Source of the DNA: Verrucomicrobiota bacterium
GTDB lineage: Bacteria > Verrucomicrobiota > Verrucomicrobiia > Limisphaerales > Palsa-1400
Direction: 5' to 3'
Assembly (NCBI GenBank): GCA_049510745.1
Contig: JBEKYR010000003.1
Coordinates: forward strand, 1-64,000
DNA length: 64,000 nucleotides
Shown in pieces: positions 5,782 through 16,413 of this stretch. The notes below the pieces were generated by a model. That model had not been told where the DNA came from, did no database searches, and saw nothing but the letters and a program-made list of their open reading frames with translations. The position numbers were made by a program, and so were the translations under genes. Position 1 is the first letter of the stretch. The number at the start of each line of letters is the position of its first letter.

Positions 5782-8700
5782 TTACGGCTCGGCCAGGATC
5801 CTGGCGCGGGCGGCGTGATATTCCGCCGGACTGATCTCGTCGGCCCGATAGCGGCGGAGGAGGTCGGCCAGTTTTTGGTCCTTGGTCGTCTCCGCGCCGG
5901 TGTTTTGGGCCGGAGCGGCGGGCTTGCCCTGGGTTTCCGCCTGGGCCGTTTTTCCGGTTTCAGCCGATTTGGATTGAGCGGCGGCCTCCGGCCTGGCAAC
6001 CGCCGGTTTCTTTGCTTCCTCCGCTTTCTTCAATCGGGCGGCGGCCTCCTCCTGGGCCTTGGCCTCGCGGATGGCCTTGGCGGCGGCTTTCTTTGCCTCG
6101 TCGGCCTGCTTGAGGCGGGCGGCGGCGGCTTCGCGTTCCTGCTGGGCGCGAAGTTTCTCCTCGGCGGCTTTTTTCTCGGTCTCGGCGCGCTGCTGGCGGG
6201 CGGCTTCCGCTTGCGCGGCTTTCTCCGCGGCGGCCTTCTCCGCGGCAGCTTTCTTTTCCTCGGCCGCTTTCTTCTCGGCCTCGGCGCGCTGCTGGCGGGC
6301 GGCTTCCGCTTGCGCGGCTTTCTCTGCGGCGGCCTTTTCCTCGGCCTCTTTGCGGGCTTGAAGCTCTTGGGCTTTCAACTGCCTGGCCAATTCTTCTTTA
6401 CTCGGCTCAACCGGCTTCGGCTTGGCGGTTTCCTGGCGCAACGCTTCCAGCGCCTTCTCCTGACTCTCGGCAGGCGCGGGCGCTGGAGCGGCTACGGGCG
6501 TGGGCGCGGGCGCGACGGGCGCTTGCCCGTGTTCCGCCTGACGCAACGCTTCCAAGGCTTTCGCGTTTTCAGATTCAGCGGGCGCGGTTGGGGCGGGCTT
6601 TGCGACCGTTGCGGGAGCGGGGGCGGGGGTTTCCGGAGCCGCTGGGGTTGCGGGCGCGGTGGGTGCCTGTCCTCGTTCGGCCTGACGCAACGCTTCCAAG
6701 GCTTTCGCGTTTTCAGATTCAGCGGGCGCGGTTGGGGCGGGGGTTGCGACCGGTGCAGGAGCGGGGGCAGGGGTTTCCGGAACCGCAGGAGTTGCAGGCG
6801 CGACGGGCGCTTGCGCTCGTTCGGCCTCGCGTAACGCTTCCAAGGCTTTCGCGTTTTCAGATTCAGCGGGCGTGCTTGGCGCGGGGGTTGCGACCACTGC
6901 GGGAGCGGGGGCAGGGGTTTCCGGAACGGCAGGGGTTGCGGGCGCGGCGGGCGCTTGCGCTCGTTCGGCTTGACGCAACGCTTCCAAAGCTTTCGCATTC
7001 TCAGATTCAGCGGGCGCGCTTGGGGCGGGGGTTGCGACCACTGCGGGAGCGGGGGTTTCCGGAGCCACAGGAGTTGCAGGCGCGACGGGCGCTTGCCCGT
7101 GTTCCGCCTGACGCAACGCTTCCAAAGCTTTCGCGTTTTCAGATTCAGCGGGCGTGCTTGGCGCGGGGGTCGCGACCGGTGCGGGAGCGGGAGCGGCGGT
7201 TTCCGGAACGGCAGGGGTTACGGGCGCGGCGGGTGCTTGCCCTCGTTCGGCCTGACGTAACGCTTCCAAAGCTTTCGCGTTTTCAGATTCAGCGGGCGCG
7301 CTTGGCGCGGGGGTTGCGACCGGTGCGGGAGCGGGAGCGGGGGTTTCCGGAGCCACAGGAGTTGAAGGCGCGACGGGCGCTTGCCCGTGTTCCGCCTGAC
7401 GCAACGCTTCCAAAGCTTTCGCGTTTTCAGATTCAGCGGGCGCGCTTGGGGCGGGGGTTGCGACCGGTACGGGAGCGGGAGCGGGGGCTTCCGGAGCCGC
7501 AGGGGTTGCGGGCGCGACGGGCGCTTGCGCTCGTTCAGCCTCACGCAACGCTTCCAAGGCTTTCGCGTTTTCAGATTCAGCGGGCGTGCTTGGCGCGGGG
7601 GTTGCGACCGGTGCGGGAGCGGGGGCGGCGGTTTCCGGAGCCGCAGGGGTTGCGGGCGCGGCGGGTGCTTGCCCGTGTTCCGCCTGACGTAACGCTTCCA
7701 AGGCTTTCGCGTTTTCAGATTCAGCGGGCGCGCTTGGCGCGGGGGTTGCGACCGGTGCGGGAGCGGGAGCGGGGGTTTCCGGAGCCGCAGGGGTTGCGGG
7801 CGCGACGGGCGCTTGCGCTCGTTCGGCCTGACGCAACGCTTCCAAGGCTTTCGCGTTTTCAGATTTAGCGGGCGCGGTTGGGGCGGGGGTTACGACCATT
7901 GCGGGAGCGGGGGCGGCGGTTTCCGGAGCCGCAGGGGTTGCGGGCGCGGCGGGCGCCTGTCCTCGTTCAGCCTGACGCAACGCTTCCAAGGCTTTCGCGT
8001 TTTCAGATTCAGCGGGCGCGCTTGGCGCGAGGGTTACGACCGGTGCGGGAGCGGGAGCGGGAGTTTCCGGAGCCGCAACGGTTACAGGCGCGGCGGCCGA
8101 CGTGGTTTGAGCCGTAGTTGGAGCGGAGGCCTGCTGCCTGGCAACCGCCAGTTTCTTTGCTTCCTCCGCTTTCTGCAGTCGGGCGGCGGCTTCCTCCTGG
8201 GCCTTGGCCTCGCGGGCGGCCTTCTTTTCTTCGGTGGCCTGCTTGAGGCGGGCGGCGGCGGCTTCGCGTTCCTGCTGGGCGCGGAGTTTTTCCGCGGCGG
8301 CCTTTTTCTCGGCGTCGGCGCGCTGCTGGCGGGCGGCTTCGGCTTGCGCGGTCTTCACCGCGGCGGTCTTCACCGCGGCGGCTTTCCTGGCCTCCTGGTC
8401 TTCGCGGAGTTTGGCGGCGGCGGCCTGGACCTTGGCGGAATCCTCAGCGTCTTTCTTTTCCTGGGCGGCCTTTCTGGCTTCGCGGGCCTGGGCGAGCCAC
8501 GCGGCCGCTTCTTGAGCTTTCCGGGCTGCGGCCTCTTTTCGGGCCTGAATTCTTTGGGCTTTGGCTTGCGCGGCCAACTCCGCCTGGGTCGGTTCAGCCG
8601 GTTTTGGCATTGCCGCCGCCGGGGCCGCAGGAGTCGCGCTCACTGCGGGCGCGGGAGCGGCGGGCGCTTGTCCGCGTTCGGCCTGACGCAACGCTTCCAA

Positions 8701-8919
8701 CGCTTCTGCGTTGCCGGTTGCAGCGGGTGCGGTTGGGGCAGGGGTTTGAGGCGCTGCGGCTGCGGGAGCGGCGGGGGCTTGTCCGCGTTCGGCTTGGCGC
8801 AAGGCTTGCAGGGCCTTGTCTTGATCGTCAGAACCGCTGGCGGGAGGTTGTGTCTGGGCCAGAGCGCCCCAGCTCATGCCGACACAAAGCACCAAAATGC
8901 AAAGCTTCCGGTTTGTCAT
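5782..8919 (-). CDS. Secreted Ala/Pro-rich tandem-repeat protein with TolA-like coiled coils and a C-terminal SHOCT-like helix pair
   Basis: Signal peptide MTNRKLCILVLCVGMSWGALA, 11 repeats containing SENAKALEALR, and C-terminus KLADLLRRYRADEISPAEYHAARARIL. Confidence 0.8.
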   Translation of the reverse strand: MTNRKLCILVLCVGMSWGALAQTQPPASGSDDQDKALQALRQAERGQAPAAPAAAAPQTPAPTAPAATGNAEALEALRQAERGQAPAAPAPAVSATPAAPAAAMPKPAEPTQAELAAQAKAQRIQARKEAAARKAQEAAAWLAQAREARKAAQEKKDAEDSAKVQAAAAKLREDQEARKAAAVKTAAVKTAQAEAARQQRADAEKKAAAEKLRAQQEREAAAARLKQATEEKKAAREAKAQEEAAARLQKAEEAKKLAVARQQASAPTTAQTTSAAAPVTVAAPETPAPAPAPVVTLAPSAPAESENAKALEALRQAERGQAPAAPATPAAPETAAPAPAMVVTPAPTAPAKSENAKALEALRQAERAQAPVAPATPAAPETPAPAPAPVATPAPSAPAESENAKALEALRQAEHGQAPAAPATPAAPETAAPAPAPVATPAPSTPAESENAKALEALREAERAQAPVAPATPAAPEAPAPAPVPVATPAPSAPAESENAKALEALRQAEHGQAPVAPSTPVAPETPAPAPAPVATPAPSAPAESENAKALEALRQAERGQAPAAPVTPAVPETAAPAPAPVATPAPSTPAESENAKALEALRQAEHGQAPVAPATPVAPETPAPAVVATPAPSAPAESENAKALEALRQAERAQAPAAPATPAVPETPAPAPAVVATPAPSTPAESENAKALEALREAERAQAPVAPATPAVPETPAPAPAPVATPAPTAPAESENAKALEALRQAERGQAPTAPATPAAPETPAPAPATVAKPAPTAPAESENAKALEALRQAEHGQAPVAPAPTPVAAPAPAPAESQEKALEALRQETAKPKPVEPSKEELARQLKAQELQARKEAEEKAAAEKAAQAEAARQQRAEAEKKAAEEKKAAAEKAAAEKAAQAEAARQQRAETEKKAAEEKLRAQQEREAAAARLKQADEAKKAAAKAIREAKAQEEAAARLKKAEEAKKPAVARPEAAAQSKSAETGKTAQAETQGKPAAPAQNTGAETTKDQKLADLLRRYRADEISPAEYHAARARILAEP
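6440..8080 (-). repeat. Intragenic tandem repeat, 11 units of about 144 bp (48 aa)
   Basis: The motif gctttcgcgttttcagattcagcgggcg recurs at 144-bp spacing (one unit is 138 bp). Boundaries are approximate. Confidence 0.95.
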
Positions 8920-10003: not shown

Positions 10004-11410
10004 TCAGCCGCCGGCCAGGAGTCTTCGCCAGCGGGCCAACTGGCGGGCGACCTGTTGGGGGCCGGGCGCGCCGACGAGGTTGCGGCGGGCCATGGCCCGG
10101 TCCAGAACGAAGACGGCCGGAACGCCGGGGCCGAAGGCGGGGTCGATCTCCTTCCATTCGCCGGCGGTCAATTGGTTGAGCGGCTTGCCCAGCGCCTCGG
10201 CCGCGGCCACGGCGGCGCCGACCAGGCGGTGGGCCTTGCGGAAAGGCATTCCTTCGCGGACCAGGAAGTCGGCCAGATCGGTGGCCAGCAGGGCCGGGTC
10301 GGCGGCGGCGGCGCGGCAATTTTCAGTATTGACGCTGGTGTTTTCAATCATGGCGGCCGTCAGGCGCGTGGCGGCGCGGACGGTGTCGGCGGAGTCGAAG
10401 AGGCGCTCCTTGTCTTCCTGCAAATCGCGGTTGTAGGTCATGGGCAGGCCCTTGAGCACGGTGAGCAGCGCCATCAAATTGCCAAAGACGCGCCCCGCCT
10501 TGCCGCGGGTCAGTTCGGCCACGTCCGGGTTCTTTTTTTGCGGCATCAGCGAAGAGCCGGTGGTGTAGGCGTCAGCCAGGGTGACAAAGCAAAACTCGGC
10601 CGTGCTCCAGAGAATCCAATCCTCCGCCAAACGGGACAAATGGACGGCGATCAAAGCGGCGGCGGCGCAGAACTCGACCACAAAATCGCGGTCGCTGACG
10701 GCGTCCATCGAATTCTGGGTTAGGCGCGGGCGGCCCTTCTGATCGACGAAGCCGAGCAGGCGGGCGACCATCTCGCGGTCCAGCGGGAGGGTCGAGCCGG
10801 CGATGGCCCCGCTGCCGAGCGGACAGATATTGGCGCGGTGAAAACAATCCACCAGCCGTTCGCCATCGCGCTGGAACATTTCGACGTAAGCCAGCAAATG
10901 ATGCGCCAGGTAAACCGGCTGGGCGCGCTGCAAGTGGGTGTAGCCCGGGATAATGACGTCGGCGTGCCTGCCGCCCAGGGCCACCAGCGCCTTTTGCAGC
11001 GAGCGCAGTTCGCCGTCCAAATCGATGATTTCATCGCGCAGCCACATGCGGACATCGAGGGCGACCTGGTCGTTGCGGGAGCGGGCGGTGTGGAGTTTGG
11101 CGCCGGCGGGGGCGCGGCGGGTCAACTCGGCCTCGATATTCATGTGGACGTCCTCCAATTCCTCCTTCCAGGAAAAGCGGTCTTCGCAGATTTCCTGGGC
11201 GATGGTATTGAGGGCGCTCTCGATTTCGAGCCATTCCGCTTTGGTAAGCACGCCGATTTTTTGCAGCATGGCGGCGTGGGCGAGCGAGCCGAGAATATCC
11301 TGCTCCCACAAGCGCCAATCGAAGGAGACCGATTGGGTGAAGCGGGCGACGTCCGAGCCAGGGCCGCCGGCGAAGCGGCCGCTGCGCGAAACTGGAGAGT
11401 CGTGTTTCAC
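10004..11410 (-). CDS. argH: Argininosuccinate lyase
   Basis: Motifs EDVHMNIE, HTARSRNDQ, GYTHLQRAQP, GSSLMPQKKNPD and YNRDLQEDKE. GTG 11410 chosen as start. Confidence 0.97.
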   Translation of the reverse strand: MKHDSPVSRSGRFAGGPGSDVARFTQSVSFDWRLWEQDILGSLAHAAMLQKIGVLTKAEWLEIESALNTIAQEICEDRFSWKEELEDVHMNIEAELTRRAPAGAKLHTARSRNDQVALDVRMWLRDEIIDLDGELRSLQKALVALGGRHADVIIPGYTHLQRAQPVYLAHHLLAYVEMFQRDGERLVDCFHRANICPLGSGAIAGSTLPLDREMVARLLGFVDQKGRPRLTQNSMDAVSDRDFVVEFCAAAALIAVHLSRLAEDWILWSTAEFCFVTLADAYTTGSSLMPQKKNPDVAELTRGKAGRVFGNLMALLTVLKGLPMTYNRDLQEDKERLFDSADTVRAATRLTAAMIENTSVNTENCRAAAADPALLATDLADFLVREGMPFRKAHRLVGAAVAAAEALGKPLNQLTAGEWKEIDPAFGPGVPAVFVLDRAMARRNLVGAPGPQQVARQLARWRRLLAGG

Positions 11411-11477
11411 CTGACAGTGGACTGTGCGGTGAAAGGGCGCGGAAAACAAGGATGAAGGAGGAAGGCGGACGGCGCGT

Positions 11478-11906
11478 TTAGGATGGCAAATTCCTGCCGG
11501 TCGTGGTCACGGTGAGTTTGCCGTGTTTCACCCCCTTGGCGGCGATGAGTTCGTCGGCGATTTTTTTGATGACGGCCGCTTGTCCGCGCACCACCAGGAC
11601 TTCGAGGCAATTGTGATGATCAAGGTGGACGTGGATTGTGGAAATGACGACCTTGAAGTGGTCGTGCTGGATGTCGGTGAGGGTGGCCTGCAGGTGCGGC
11701 TTGTGATGGTCATAGACCAGCGTGATGGTGCCGGCGATTTGGCCCTGGCTGGTCTTCTGCCGGTGCTCGATCAATTGCGCGCGAATCATGTCGGCGATTG
11801 CTTGCGAGCGATTGGCGTAACTTTTTTCACGGCACATTTGGTCCCACTGCTGCAGCAACGCCGGCGCGAGGGAAACGCTGAAGCGTCTGACGGTTTCCTT
11901 TTTCAT
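11478..11906 (-). CDS. nikR: Nickel-responsive transcriptional regulator
   Basis: Ribbon-helix-helix N-terminus (RFSVSL...YANRSQAIADMIR) and ACT-like domain with Ni ligands (QHDH...IHVHLDHHNCLEV), plus KGVKHGKL. Confidence 0.95.
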   Translation of the reverse strand: MKKETVRRFSVSLAPALLQQWDQMCREKSYANRSQAIADMIRAQLIEHRQKTSQGQIAGTITLVYDHHKPHLQATLTDIQHDHFKVVISTIHVHLDHHNCLEVLVVRGQAAVIKKIADELIAAKGVKHGKLTVTTTGRNLPS

Positions 11907-11918
11907 GCGTCGAGTCCA

Positions 11919-12503
11919 TCAGGATTTTGGCGGAATGATCTCGATTTCAAAAAGCTTTTTCTCAGGCAATTCGCCGCACTCATGCGCAAGGGCTTCCAAT
12001 TCGTCGTCCGGGCGGGAACGGATTTTTTCCAGATATTCGGCGTTGGGCTTGAGAATGAGGACGGGGCCGGTCTTGTCCTTGCGCCGGGCGCTCACGTGAA
12101 TGTCCGCGACGGTCAGGACCTCCGCGAGCCGCAAATCAAGCCGGCCAATGCTGTTGCCCGTGCCCACGGCCAAGCCGTCCGCGATGCACGAATAAGGCGT
12201 TGCCAGCGGCACATGACAGACCACGTCTATTTCGTGCCCGCCCCATTTCGCATTGAGTTCGCGCAGGGCGGCCTTGCCCATGCGCCAGCCGAGGACGTTC
12301 CACGGGCCGACGTGGCCGTGCCCCTGTTTGATCTCGTTCCACCAGTTGGTCGGTTCCTGCGCCTGGTTCCAGAGGTTCGAGGCAGGCCGGGATTGAATGG
12401 CGGATGGGTCGTCGGGATGGGCATGGAGTTTCATGGTCGTCAAAAGGCTGAAGGTTAAGAAGGCGAGGCAAATGGGAATTGGACTTTTCATGGCTGGCAT
12501 CAT
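11919..12503 (-). CDS. FmdE-family (formylmethanofuran dehydrogenase subunit E-like) protein with predicted signal peptide
   Basis: GHGHVGPWNVLGWRMG and SCIADGLAVGTGNSIG FmdE motifs. Hydrophobic leader ending LHA-HPDD. ATGA overlap with the upstream gene stop at 12500-12503. Confidence 0.85.
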   Translation of the reverse strand: MMPAMKSPIPICLAFLTFSLLTTMKLHAHPDDPSAIQSRPASNLWNQAQEPTNWWNEIKQGHGHVGPWNVLGWRMGKAALRELNAKWGGHEIDVVCHVPLATPYSCIADGLAVGTGNSIGRLDLRLAEVLTVADIHVSARRKDKTGPVLILKPNAEYLEKIRSRPDDELEALAHECGELPEKKLFEIEIIPPKS

Positions 12504-13141
12504 GGGCTGCTGAACTGTGCTCCGTTGCGGGCGGCAAACCGCGCGATGACGCCGCCTTCCCCGATGCGGCGATACCAACTGTCGCTGCTCAACGGCGCGT
12601 AGGTGCCCAAGCTTCTGGCGCTGTTCGGCTGCGGACCCAGGCTCCAAATGACCCAGCGCACGGGACTGGTCCTGGCATCGGTGAAATAGGTTCCGCCGCC
12701 GCTCATGTCCGGCGCGTTGGTCGGAACCCACAGGGAATAGTTTCCGGCGGGCGCGCCGTTGAGCAGTTGCGGTCCGGGCGCGGCGTATTTGTAGGTATGG
12801 CCGGGATTGAACAGGTCTTCGAGGTCAGCCTCGAGTCCGCCCTGGCTCCCGTGCGGCAGATAATGTTCATTGGCCAGCTCGACCGGCAGTTCGCACCAAT
12901 GCGAAGCAAGGTCGGTGTTGCAATTGTCGCGCACCGGCGGAAGCCGTCCGCCGTAATCGGTGGAATACATGTCGAACGCCAGGCCGAGGGCGTTCAACTC
13001 GGCGTGGACTCTGGCCACTTTCGCCTTTTCCTTCCCCCAGGCCAGGGCCGGCAGCAACAGGGCAGCAAGAATGCCGATGATGGCGATGGCCGCCAGCAGT
13101 TCAACCAGCGTGAATGCGGCGTTGTTTTTGCGGGGTCGCAT
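12500..13141 (-). CDS. Prepilin-type N-terminal cleavage/methylation domain protein (pseudopilin)
   Basis: Class III signal MRPRKNNAA/FTLVELLAAIAIIGILAALLLPAL, and a GspG-like WVIWSLGP motif near the C-terminus. Confidence 0.92.
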   Translation of the reverse strand: MRPRKNNAAFTLVELLAAIAIIGILAALLLPALAWGKEKAKVARVHAELNALGLAFDMYSTDYGGRLPPVRDNCNTDLASHWCELPVELANEHYLPHGSQGGLEADLEDLFNPGHTYKYAAPGPQLLNGAPAGNYSLWVPTNAPDMSGGGTYFTDARTSPVRWVIWSLGPQPNSARSLGTYAPLSSDSWYRRIGEGGVIARFAARNGAQFSSP

Positions 13142-13171
13142 ATTTGAATGATCCGGAATTCCGGCAACAGA

Positions 13172-14350
13172 TCATTGCACGCGTTGCAACCGGAAAAATC
13201 TCTGTACGCCCGCCGGCTCCAGCACAACTGTGTTCAGCCCGTTGACCAAAACCGGCGCGTTTGTCACCGCCGCCCAGTTCGGGCTGGTCAACGAATCGCT
13301 GCTTTGCACCTGATAATTGGCCAGCGCCGCCGGCCAGGTGATGACCGGCTTGTTCGCCAGATTCAGCACCGCGCTGCTCGACGGGGTGATTTCCTGCGCG
13401 AACAATTCGTAACCGAACGTGCCGTCCGTGCCGGAGCCGGATTCCTGAAGGAAAACCCCGGTGGCGTCGAATTGGTTCGTCGGCGCCGGGCCGATGTCAT
13501 AGAGCGGATGGATCAGCGGGAACTGCCGGCCTTCGCCATCCGTCGCCGTGCAATAACGCGAACTCCAATCCGAATTGGTATTCCAGCCGTCGGTCGTGAC
13601 CAATGTCAGTCCGTTGATGCGCACGCGCATTCCTTGATAATACTCGCCGCCCGTCGCGCGCGTCGGATCGAAAATGTCGTAATGCCCCGTCGCGCTGAGA
13701 TTCGTGCTGATCACCGACGAGAGTGAAATCACTTGCGGCGATGGCAGGCCGAAATTGGACGAGACCAGCGAAATGGTAAAATCGTAGGCCGGGTCGGTGC
13801 TGTGTTCCTCGTTGATGTTTTGCATGCCGCCGTAGAAGAGCGAACCGTTGGCGGTGATCATGACCAGATCGCCCTTTTGAAACGCGTAACCGGTGGCGGG
13901 ATCGTGGCTCACGCGATTGACCTCGGAAGTCCAGGCGCTGTCATCGTAGCTGTCGCTTCCGTCGTGCGGTTCCCACGGAAGGTTGCCGTAATTCTGCGCC
14001 ATCCAGCACTCGACGCCGCCGCGGTCACTGCCGCCGATGACGGCCTGCACAAACACCTGCCACTGGCCGCCCAGTTCAAAGGCGCTCGCGCCATCATCCC
14101 ACGGAATGAAATCCGGCGTCGAGTCGAGCATTTCGTTCGGGTCGGTCAACAGGACGCCGACCAGGGTAATCGGGTAGCTCCCGTTCCACGTGCTCACACC
14201 GTTGGCGTCCACCGCCTCAAGATTGGAAAACGATTCCGCGCGCAGGGTCGCCGCCCACAGGCAAAGGCCCGCCACGAAATAGGCGGCGAGTTTCAAAAGG
14301 AAGCCCGCGGTTCGGGAAAGGTCCGGTTTGGTCAAACAAGGATCCATCAC
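13172..14350 (-). CDS. Secreted acidic protein of unknown function (possible OB-fold repeats) with a C-terminal surface-sorting-like tail
   Basis: Signal peptide ending TLRA, OB-like FQKGDLVMITA and YQGMRVRINGL segments, and tail ITWP...YQVQSSDSL...W...RFFRLQ. Confidence 0.75.
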   Translation of the reverse strand: MMDPCLTKPDLSRTAGFLLKLAAYFVAGLCLWAATLRAESFSNLEAVDANGVSTWNGSYPITLVGVLLTDPNEMLDSTPDFIPWDDGASAFELGGQWQVFVQAVIGGSDRGGVECWMAQNYGNLPWEPHDGSDSYDDSAWTSEVNRVSHDPATGYAFQKGDLVMITANGSLFYGGMQNINEEHSTDPAYDFTISLVSSNFGLPSPQVISLSSVISTNLSATGHYDIFDPTRATGGEYYQGMRVRINGLTLVTTDGWNTNSDWSSRYCTATDGEGRQFPLIHPLYDIGPAPTNQFDATGVFLQESGSGTDGTFGYELFAQEITPSSSAVLNLANKPVITWPAALANYQVQSSDSLTSPNWAAVTNAPVLVNGLNTVVLEPAGVQRFFRLQRVQ

Positions 14351-14365
14351 AAGTTGTTCAATTCG

Positions 14366-14393
14366 GTGTTACGAAATCATACAATCGTGTTTC
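14366..14393. promoter_or_regulatory. Candidate NikR operator overlapping the -10 element of the operon
   Basis: GTGTTAC-N14-GTGTTTC with inner dyad ACGA-N10-TCGT. TCATAC at 14377-14382, and TATGAT on the minus strand at 14376-14381, lie just upstream of the first gene of the nikR cluster. Confidence 0.5.
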
Positions 14394-14540
14394 ATGGCAA
14401 GCTGAAAATTGGTTTTCAACCGTCTTTTTTTGGCCTCCGGGAAAATGGTTTATCCGCGCCTCCAACTCCGCGCCGTGAAAGAATTGACGGGCAGCAATAT
14501 GAAGGTTTTCAATCCAGCCAGCGAAACGGCTGGGTTGCGG

Positions 14541-15731
14541 TCAGGTCAGCCAGTGTGCGGCCGGTTGGGAAAGGAATTCCTCCAAGGCGATGCCTTGCCC
14601 CCCGACCAGCAATTGGCGCCTGGGCTTGAATTGTCTGGCAAAGGCTTCCATGCCGGGAAGCGATTCGCGGCGGCCTCCGCTCTTGACTTCAATCGCAACC
14701 GTCGTCTTGCCCTTCTCCAAAATGAAATCGACTTCCTGGTTGCGTTCACGCCAGTAGGTGAGGCTGATGTTGGCGCCAAAGCTGGAATTGAACAGGTGCG
14801 CGCCGATGCTGGATTCGACCAGCCGCCCCCAATAATCACCGTCGCGTCTGGCTTCCGCGAGCGAGCGGTGATCCTGGGCGCTCATCAAGGCGGTATTGAG
14901 CGCTTGGAGTTTGGGGCTGGACCCGCGCTGACGCGCCCGGCCGCGAGAATACTTGGCCAGCCCGGCCAGCATTCCGGCGCCTTGCAGCAATTCCAGGTAA
15001 TGGGCCAGCGTGGTGGTGTTGCCGGCGTCGGCAAGCTGTCCGATCATTTTCTGATACGAGAGGATTTGCCCGGAATAGGCGCAACCGAGATAAAACACGC
15101 GGCGCAACAGCGCCGGCTTGTCCACGCGGTTTAACGAGAGGATGTCGCGCGAAATGGTGGTTTCAATCAGCGAATCCAGGATGTAACGCCGCCAGCGTTC
15201 CGGCTCTTCGATCAACCCGGCGGCGCCGGGATACGCGCCGTAGAAAATGTATAGCTCCAACGTCCAGCCGAAGGCCTGGCGCATCTCGGTCAATGACCAG
15301 TGCGGCACCGAAATGACTTCAAAACGTCCCGCCAGACTATCCGTCAGGCCGCTCTGGATCAGCAAGGGCGCGCAACCAAGCAAGACCACTTTGAGGGGGA
15401 CGCCGGAATGGGTGTCCGCGTCCCAAAGCAGCTTCACGACATTTGGCCAGTCGGTGATCTTTTGAATCTCGTCCAGGACCAGCAACGCGCCGGATTTTCC
15501 TTCGCCGGCTTTGAGCCGGGCAATGTCCCACTGCTGTTCAAGCCAGGTGCGGTCGCCGCGCAACGCCGGCTCGTCGGCGGAGGCGTAGTGGGCGGGCATC
15601 TGTGACGCCGCCATCACCTGACGGGCCAACGTCGTCTTGCCGGCCTGTCGCGGGCCTGCCAGCACCTGCAAGAAGCGGCGTTTTTCCATGAGCCGTTTCA
15701 ACAATTCGTCGTGGATGGCGCGCCGTATCAT
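14541..15731 (-). CDS. AAA+ ATPase with C-terminal PD-(D/E)XK-like domain (AAA_14 + DUF4143 type)
   Basis: Walker A GPRQAGKTT, Walker B LLVLDEIQ, DSLAGRF, and C-terminal YWRERNQEVDFI...AIEVKSG. Confidence 0.9.
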   Translation of the reverse strand: MIRRAIHDELLKRLMEKRRFLQVLAGPRQAGKTTLARQVMAASQMPAHYASADEPALRGDRTWLEQQWDIARLKAGEGKSGALLVLDEIQKITDWPNVVKLLWDADTHSGVPLKVVLLGCAPLLIQSGLTDSLAGRFEVISVPHWSLTEMRQAFGWTLELYIFYGAYPGAAGLIEEPERWRRYILDSLIETTISRDILSLNRVDKPALLRRVFYLGCAYSGQILSYQKMIGQLADAGNTTTLAHYLELLQGAGMLAGLAKYSRGRARQRGSSPKLQALNTALMSAQDHRSLAEARRDGDYWGRLVESSIGAHLFNSSFGANISLTYWRERNQEVDFILEKGKTTVAIEVKSGGRRESLPGMEAFARQFKPRRQLLVGGQGIALEEFLSQPAAHWLT

Positions 15732-15737
15732 ACAAAT

Positions 15738-15772
15738 TACTCAATATGCTGAGTATTTTTACTCAATACTCA
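15738..15772. promoter_or_regulatory. Array of four TACTCA hexamers (one inverted) immediately upstream of the AAA+ ATPase
   Basis: TACTCA at 15738, 15760 and 15767, and TGAGTA at 15750, forming two overlapping dyads. Confidence 0.5.
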
Positions 15773-16030
15773 TGGAAAAGCAAGCAGCGCTTTCAATGTG
15801 GACTTAATGGACTCGGTGGACGTGCCTGGGCGGACAAACCGGCCTTCATCCTTGTTCCTCTCCCCGCTGAATCAGGCTTTCCCTCATGCGGGATTTCAGG
15901 GGAACCCCGATTGCCGGGAATCAAGATTTGGGCCAAACTGTCTTCGTTGTTTGGGGGGATAATGAGACCCGGTTGGTGATTGGTTGCATCAGCCGGGTTT
16001 CCTCTTTTTTATCCGCGGTCCGGTGATGTA

Positions 16031-16270
16031 TTACTTTTTCCGCGTCCGTCGTGAATTCCCATTTCGCGCCGGCTGAAGGGCTTCGAGGCCGACGATGTGA
16101 AGGGGATCGAGATTCACCACATAGCCGCGTTGGTCCGCAATGACGACCGATCTTTGGACGACGAAGATGAAGTCCGGGTGCGGCACAGGATACTTGTGGC
16201 CGCTGGAAGTGACGACGGCAAAGGGTTTGAAGTTCCCTTCCATCCGCTCGCGAATATGGGCAACGTTCAC
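16031..16270 (-). CDS. Small hypothetical protein (79 aa)
   Basis: FKPFAVVTSSGHKYPVPHPDFI pattern. GTG start 6 nt downstream of TTGACA-17-CATAAT. Confidence 0.7.
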   Translation of the reverse strand: MNVAHIRERMEGNFKPFAVVTSSGHKYPVPHPDFIFVVQRSVVIADQRGYVVNLDPLHIVGLEALQPARNGNSRRTRKK

Positions 16271-16413
16271 AGTCGTATTATGTCGGCGGCGGCGCCTTCT
16301 GTCAACAGAGGGCCGCGTGGCGGATAAGGGCTTGACTCCGGGCGGGAGTTGATGCAGAACGTTCGCCAGACCCAGGCAATATGACTTGTTTAAACACCAG
16401 CAAAAGGACCGAT

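Follow-up and report, generated by a model that had tools for sequence, protein, structure and literature searches.

What does the nickel regulator NikR control when its gene stands behind genes for a secreted protein, a prepilin and an exported FmdE-like protein, with no transporter gene adjoining them? This question is raised by a locus in a 64,000-nucleotide (nt) stretch of DNA, hereafter the window (contig JBEKYR010000003.1 of assembly GCA_049510745.1, positions 1 to 64,000), from a bacterium of the Verrucomicrobiota (order Limisphaerales, Palsa-1400). An initial annotation, made from the sequence alone, had read the locus as a NikR-controlled, pseudopilus-linked nickel-acquisition module lacking a canonical transporter. 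We found that gene linkage, an operator, co-occurrence with NikR and nickel enzymes, and a predicted complex between two of the proteins agree with nickel acquisition, and that the framing as a system without a transporter has to be given up. With moderate confidence, we propose NikR-repressed nickel capture by a complex of a tandem OB-fold protein and a pilin, relay by the FmdE-family protein, and import by a separately encoded inner-membrane permease.

The coordinates of the four open reading frames (ORFs) confirm that the genes are co-oriented, on the minus strand, and tightly spaced (in order, 30 nt, a 4-nt overlap and 12 nt). Signal peptides were assigned by eye and from homologues. The features are as follows.

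13172 to 14350, minus strand: exported tandem OB-fold protein of 392 amino acids (aa), hereafter the OB protein, a putative surface nickel binder; start codon GTG at 14350 or ATG at 14347
14237 to 14350, minus strand: Sec-type signal peptide of the OB protein, residues 1-38
13802 to 13819, minus strand: near-invariant N-x-N-E-x-H motif of the OB protein (N178, N180, E181, H183), candidate metal ligands
13175 to 13354, minus strand: C-terminal tail of the OB protein, ~60 aa, a likely sorting signal
12500 to 13141, minus strand: cognate class III prepilin, 213 aa, with a GspG-like pseudopilin fold (profile match and fold model)
12920 to 12922, minus strand: codon of the invariant pilin Cys74 (mature Cys65)
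11919 to 12503, minus strand: exported FmdE-family protein (PF02663), 194 aa, a putative periplasmic nickel chaperone
11478 to 11906, minus strand: NikR regulator, 142 aa (NF003381), the only nikR copy found in the genome
14366 to 14393, no strand assigned: single NikR-type operator, an inverted repeat (7-14-7) that lies 16 nt upstream of the OB protein gene, the first of the four
~11415 to 16325, no strand assigned: lineage-specific segment holding the module, an AAA_14/DUF4143 gene and a small ORF, missing in the same-genus genome G501

Contigs of other samples span the junctions unchanged, so the gene arrangement is not a misassembly. The argH-nikR junction is bridged by contigs from another peat run, X4, the junction between the OB gene and the ATPase gene by contigs from peat runs X4, X6 and X7, and the junction at ~16325 by contigs from X4 and X6, with zero differences in each case. 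Near-identical DNA occurs in peat and wetland metagenome runs, and the names attached to homologues suggest a Limisphaerales-like host within the Verrucomicrobiota. A sigma-70 scan recovered no promoter on the coding strand. The end of nikR lies only ~30-70 nt before argH (11410-11478), and because of this short distance argH may share the promoter of the module in this genome.

To see which genes keep company with the module, we assembled 124 loci. Of these, 34 lie in 33 genomes out of 200 surveyed in the order, 9 were drawn from the phylum, 80 were retained among 166 GTDB hits, and 1 came from the family. Dropping 10 duplicates left 114 non-redundant loci from Verrucomicrobiota and Planctomycetota. 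Neighbour counts rest on tblastn and importer identities on Pfam and NCBIfam; the flanks extend at most 8 kb, so that the counts of importers, nikR and FmdE are lower bounds. The co-localisation that the initial annotation had proposed to look for across genomes of the Planctomycetes-Verrucomicrobia-Chlamydiae (PVC) group was indeed found: nikR is nearby in 52 of the 114 loci and FmdE in 44, and a pilin homologue lies downstream of the OB gene in 99 (67/71 verrucomicrobial or other loci and 32/43 planctomycete loci). When any prepilin motif is counted, a downstream pilin is present in 108 of the 114. A metal importer is nearby in 64 loci (ZnuA-like ATP-binding cassette (ABC) type in 41, CbiM in 19, NiCoT in 3 and DsbD_2 in 1). 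The importer type varies while the OB-pilin pair stays, which marks the pair as the conserved unit.

Fifteen loci have the gene order OB-pilin-fmdE-nikR. Ten of these stand beside cbiM/cbiQ and three beside NiCoT; of the remaining two, one has no upstream sequence and the other has a divergent methyltransferase gene. Close relatives have a CbiM-PDGLE/CbiQ/ATPase importer at the same operator region. A class I S-adenosylmethionine (SAM) methyltransferase gene is found in 37 of the 114 loci, usually divergent from the same NikR boxes (for instance, L046:8390-9064 (+) and L034:9253-9903 (+)). The ZnuA-like binding proteins of the 41 loci (e.g. L044:5962-6789 (-)) have a conserved Cys-Pro-Gly-His, in 6/6 among those listed, and score far under the AztC cut-off; they possibly belong to an undescribed nickel-type cluster A-I importer.

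The regulator itself is well assigned. NikR scores 194 bits against NF003381 (cut-off 105) and has the ribbon-helix-helix (RHH) and NikR_C domains. Its residues H81, H92, H94 and C100 align with the ligands of solved NikRs, so that the nickel ligands are intact as first described; we take these to correspond to H76, H87, H89 and C95 of E. coli NikR. An operator matrix was learnt de novo, without a seed, from 32 upstream regions of other loci, with the window excluded. It is a 28-bp palindrome of 22.0 bits, as opposed to 10.5-11.3 bits in five shuffles, and it matches the published NikR box, a 27-28-bp inverted repeat with a 13/14-bp spacer (Rodionov et al. 2004, PMC545781; here and below, comparisons are to excerpts of the papers cited).

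The held-out site of the window (14366-14393) scores 16.5 and ranks second in the 5.6 Mb genome. The top-scoring box, C5:181235, is not within range of any gene start, and we took it for a chance match. The third-best NikR-like box (15.5), C1:76464, lies upstream of a gene for a 947-aa secreted protein whose C-terminal tail is similar, and is either a possible second regulon member or a match by chance. We then rescored the half-sites only, with a spacer of 13 or 14 bp and a threshold of 12. A score of at least 12 was reached in 82 of 110 scorable loci (51/78 outside the training set), compared with 6/330 shuffles; the window box itself scores 11.7, just below the threshold. The spacer is 14 bp in 62/62 non-planctomycete matches and 13 bp in 18/20 planctomycete matches. 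In close relatives there are two boxes, and the apparent start codon is overlapped by the second of them, as expected for repression; the window has one. Judged by its box, the module appears to be a member of the NikR regulon and not itself an importer operon.

What, then, are the proteins under this control? The 392-aa protein has zero Pfam or NCBIfam family matches. One search gave 666 homologues at E<=0.001, and a second gave 883 clusters. An AlphaFold2 model built from 148 sequences has a mean predicted local distance difference test (pLDDT) of 94.1, and its body consists of two OB folds. The best match is the OB domain of MCM (Z 11.0, root-mean-square deviation (rmsd) 2.4, 93 aligned residues); further matches include YgiW (Z 8.8) and two-domain RPA over residues 1-288. 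Foldseek returned nothing at E<=0.001. By itself, sharing a fold points to no function. The protein is acidic (41 D/E versus 16 K/R), and its near-invariant residues are D109, N178, N180, E181, H183, E236 and Q302; in the motif, N178 is conserved in 147/148 sequences, E181 in 146/148 and H183 in 147/148.

The top fold matches (RPA, MCM, HIN) are DNA-binding OB folds, and some loci encode FmdE as a fusion with a nucleoside-hydrolase-like domain. These two observations would fit the idea that the OB protein and the pilin bind or take up nucleic acid, in a competence-like manner, or a nucleoside-like ligand. The ligand could also be a metal other than nickel, as the CbiM, NiCoT and ZnuA-like families carry cobalt, zinc or manganese as well. 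We consider both very improbable. The strong acidity of the protein and its near-invariant polar residues, which are Asp, Asn, Glu, Gln and His plus two Arg, do not resemble a basic DNA-binding face; the periplasmic OB proteins YgiW and CcmE also match the fold; no Rfam riboswitch was found in the 9 loci scanned; and the NikR box and the co-occurrence with NikR argue for nickel.

The description of an acidic protein with a signal peptide and a surface-sorting-like tail was borne out. The last ~60 aa are common to hundreds of unrelated proteins of the order, many of them exported. In 66 of 113 distant homologues the tail is swapped for PEP-CTERM-like tails (a regular-expression count), and Pfam finds PEP-CTERM in 34 of 77 homologues; dockerin-like repeats accompany it in some distant homologues. 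This replacement supports a sorting-type tail. The PEP-CTERM motif was not found in the 392-aa protein of the window by the Pfam scan, and a search of the Atlas with the tail returned only unnamed Verrucomicrobiota clusters. The 392-aa protein likewise did not match DUF5689 (PF18942, cut-off 28.6). Of 77 homologues, 26 match DUF5689 at E<=0.1 (best E 3.2e-7); the best score is below the cut-off, at 27.8 among the matches listed. The OB-repeat proteins of DUF5689 thus appear to be distant kin of the OB protein.

One homologue, P0124 (967 aa), is fused behind three His/Trp-rich repeats with a match to copper(I)-binding CorA (E 1e-7); a PDB sequence search with this protein gave no match. Further secreted proteins with the tail are encoded directly before their own solo prepilin in this genome (C13:30155, C35:16926 and C47:18227), which suggests that there are more receptor-pilin cassettes. 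Similar additional cassettes occur in the relative loci L032, L038 and L053.

The 213-aa protein is a prepilin, as first annotated (N_methyl PF07963, E 7e-8). It has the class III signal (x|FTLxE), the long N-terminal helix and the pilin head fold of type IV pilins and pseudopilins. Its model (pLDDT 93.6) is nearest to EpsG (Z 7.4, rmsd 2.5, 98 aligned residues) and then to PulG (Z 6.8). Against the GspG model TIGR01710 it scores 36.7 bits (cut-off 88.85), and zero genes of a type II secretion system (T2SS) adjoin it. There were zero matches at E<=1 to DUF1559 (PF07596) or the H-X9-DG model, and the H-X9-DG motif is not in the sequence. The Cys/His/Trp patch had been given as C-x7-HWC; the spacing is C-x6-HWC, and only its first Cys is invariant. 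This residue, Cys74, is conserved in 88/88 sequences and is the only Cys of the pilin head in 4 homologues; the following H, W and C are found in 65/88, 60/88 and 58/88, respectively, so the HWC part appears to be lineage specific.

A complex prediction for the OB domains with the pilin head scored 0.76, compared with 0.00 for the best of 3 controls. The mark set for this score is reached by 116/157 solved pairs and 2/215 mismatched pairs, counts that are only a rough guide for alignments of our own. The runs agree in at least 95% of contacts, and both partners have a pLDDT of at least 86. The predicted interface holds E182 and H183 of the OB protein and the pilin loop with Cys74; the His183-Cys74 pair is not among the 25 contacts listed for the complex. 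In an analysis of inter-protein coevolution with 88 paired sequences (effective number of sequences, 59), 0 of the top 100 pairs fell in the predicted interface; the top pairs resemble phylogenetic noise, and 17 scorable predicted contacts average Z +0.8. We know of no solved OB-pilin complex. The prediction supports binding of the OB protein to the pilin, short of demonstrating it. With His183 and Cys74 both in the predicted interface, metal hand-over there is the reading we favour.

The regulatory and linkage evidence would fit equally well a pilin whose dedicated role is solely that of an adaptor for export or anchoring, or that acts as a periplasmic accessory tethered to the inner membrane, comparable to NikK/NikL. 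Nickel would then be bound by the OB protein alone and would cross the outer membrane through porins or TonB receptors, as proposed for ZepA (discussed below). We regard this as rather unlikely. In its favour, the hydrophobic segment that ends the PEP-CTERM tails could tether the homologues, periplasmic accessory components have been proposed for NikMQO (PMC545781), and this genome has four TonB-receptor matches over the cut-off. However, an adaptor has no obvious need for an invariant Cys (88/88) in a predicted interface with an invariant His, and a TonB receptor was found in only 1 of the 114 loci (a CbiM locus; a single query was used, which makes this a weak test).

The third exported component belongs to the FmdE family (PF02663, E 8.5e-14, 52.2 bits, cut-off 22.9). 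A phmmer search with it against the PDB gave no match. The residues named by the initial annotation, a predicted mature N-terminal His and HGH/Cys ligands behind a signal peptide, are present as H29, H62, H64 and C106. Gly appears to take the position of Cys19, the third ligand of the solved site (mapped by motif only). The solved FmdE binds Zn/Ni through His-His-Cys-Cys with mixed Zn/Ni occupancy, and most genes of the family adjoin metal transporters (Axelrod et al. 2010, PMC2954224). Our protein has the HxH and Cys residues expected for the metal site of this family, and differs from the solved protein in its signal peptide, the Gly in place of Cys19 and the conserved mature N-terminal His (PMC2954224). 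In 18 of 21 stand-alone FmdE homologues that were readable, the first residue after the predicted cleavage site is a His. An exported fusion of a nucleoside-hydrolase-like domain and FmdE, also with a mature N-terminal His, is encoded beside cbiMQO in six loci (L037:9261-10829 (+), L056, L059, L095, L097 and L122); it may handle a nickel chelate or a nucleoside-like ligand.

Does the module occur where nickel is needed? Among the 200 genomes of the order, NikR is present in 32 of the 33 carriers of the module, versus 20/167 others, and HypD in 29/33 versus 44/167. The four carriers without HypD have matches to Lar_N, for which there is no base rate. The carriers are spread over 18 families. 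In the genome studied here, genes for two [NiFe] hydrogenase large subunits have HypA/HypB genes close by, and HypD and Lar_N proteins are also encoded.

No importer (NikABCDE, NikMNQO, NiCoT or HupE/UreJ) was found among the genes flanking the module, and at this locus the absence of a canonical transporter stands. It does not hold as a property of the system: relatives have cbiMQ(O), NiCoT or cluster A-I ABC importers next to the module, and this genome encodes a HupE/UreJ permease away from the module, on contig C13. We rejected the DsbD_2 gene on C36 as a candidate nickel permease because apparent cbb3-oxidase genes surround it.

The missing transporter raises the possibility that this copy was acquired horizontally as a fragment of the divergon found in its relatives and is now an orphan, having lost its importer and most of the control by NikR and retaining little function. 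The module is present in 1 of 18 genomes of the family and 0/2 of the genus (89 and 91% complete). In G501, one of these two, argH is followed directly by the counterpart of the gene at 16381 here, so that the segment ~11415-16325 (4.9 kb) was gained here or lost there. The best homologues of the module (80-86%) come from loci with cbiMQ, there is a single degenerate box, and GC3 (G+C content at third codon positions) is 0.74-0.77 in the module, compared with 0.82-0.83 for the flanking argH and deoC-like genes. Nevertheless, we find this account improbable. The four frames are intact and the family-invariant residues are kept, the genome needs nickel and has HupE/UreJ, and the difference from G501 could have arisen by loss there as readily as by gain here. 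The missing transporter is accordingly a local feature, and one that this copy has in common with seven further close homologues, which lack an adjoining importer although their upstream flanks are long.

The segment also contains the gene of the AAA_14/DUF4143 ATPase (14541-15731 (-)) and a 79-aa ORF (16031-16270 (-)). A 14-nt inverted repeat at 11445/15843 was rejected as the ends of an element, since the genome contains 45 copies of its core. Elsewhere in the window, a 1045-aa secreted protein (5782-8919 (-)) has many Pro/Ala-rich repeats and a conserved helix motif at its end; the same-genus locus L165 appears to carry two far shorter copies of it.

Nickel capture by the OB protein and the pilin could proceed in five steps. 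From the genes, box, folds and linkage that the sequence provides, and from a binding that is so far predicted, we infer the nickel specificity, the localisation and the order of transfer. First, low nickel would release NikR from the box at 14366-14393. Second, the OB protein would be exported via its signal peptide and sorted via its tail, and the prepilin would be cleaved and then assembled into a pilus or pseudopilus with machinery from other loci; this genome has 4 secretins, 7 PilT-family ATPases over the cut-off and about 60 prepilins (a regular-expression count), and use of that machinery by this pilin is presumed. Third, the OB domains are predicted to dock on the pilin head, where metal may be handed over at the His183/Cys74 interface. 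Fourth, periplasmic FmdE would take the metal via His62, His64 and Cys106, with His29 perhaps replacing the missing fourth ligand. Fifth, in relatives Nik(MN)QO, NiCoT or an ABC importer would carry the metal into the cytoplasm; here HupE/UreJ probably would, and the metal could supply the two [NiFe] hydrogenases and the LarA-like enzymes.

Several observations weigh against this scheme. A pilin homologue was not found in 15 of the 114 loci, FmdE is near in only the 44 given above, and the box was not recovered in 23 of the 43 planctomycete loci. In the left half-site of the window box, a position occupied by T in 98% of sites has another base; with one box and a deviant half-site, this copy may be only weakly regulated. 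None of the 30 best box matches in the genome lies at the HupE/UreJ gene, and searches of the assembly, which is 94% complete, gave no CbiM, NicO, ZnuA or SBP_bac_5. The Asn/Glu/His motif of the OB protein does not look like a classic nickel site. Finally, the carrier genomes are related, so that the co-occurrence counts overstate their independence.

A bolder extension of the scheme, which we hold to be doubtful rather than probable, is that nickel crosses the outer membrane independently of TonB. The nickel-loaded surface OB protein would dock on the pseudopilin, the invariant Cys would complete the site, and a shared retractile pilus would draw the complex in through a secretin.

How does the module compare with known systems? 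No description of it was found in the literature searched, with subscription papers and supplements outside the search. It resembles the NikR-repressed nik(MN)QO and nikKMLQO importers of delta-proteobacteria in NikR, the inverted-repeat box and, in close relatives, an importer at the same operator; unlike these operons, it has an OB surface protein and a pilin, which the excerpts do not describe there, and the importer does not adjoin the module in the window (PMC545781). With Zur-ZepA it shares a signal-peptide exoprotein that is linked to a metal repressor and encoded near metal importers in PVC bacteria (Sarasa-Buisan et al. 2024, PMC10957091). ZepA is described as having a PEP-CTERM tail, an immunoglobulin-like fold (in domain A, which is joined by a domain B), control by Zn/Zur, and TonB-receptor neighbours (PMC10957091). 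This published description sets it apart from the Ni/NikR association, tandem OB fold and dedicated pseudopilin found here, and the word 'pilin' is not in the main text of the paper (PMC10957091). The pilin is like the major T2SS pseudopilins GspG, EpsG and PulG in its class III signal peptide and fold, and unlike them it is solo, outside a secretion operon, paired 1:1 with a cognate protein, and has an invariant Cys. Pilins have been implicated in metal or glycan acquisition, for instance Synechocystis PilA1 (PMC5634550) and Akkermansia MUL2 (PMC13174399). These are precedents for pili that aid acquisition; no pairing of a pilin with a cognate protein like that of the module was seen in the excerpts of these two papers.

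The module likely provides the cell envelope with a step of nickel capture for which we found no description, and it bears on the nickel supply of hydrogenase-using bacteria such as this one, whose DNA occurs in peat metagenome runs. Dozens of solo prepilin genes in PVC genomes have no assigned role, and the module gives one branch of them a regulator, a likely substrate and a predicted partner. It also names residues for study (His183 and Glu181 of the OB protein, Cys74 of the pilin and His29 of FmdE), and the question of whether PVC pilins are import adaptors becomes directly testable with purified proteins. If pilus-driven import were true, the solo prepilins of PVC bacteria would be substrate-specific import adaptors, each with its own surface receptor.

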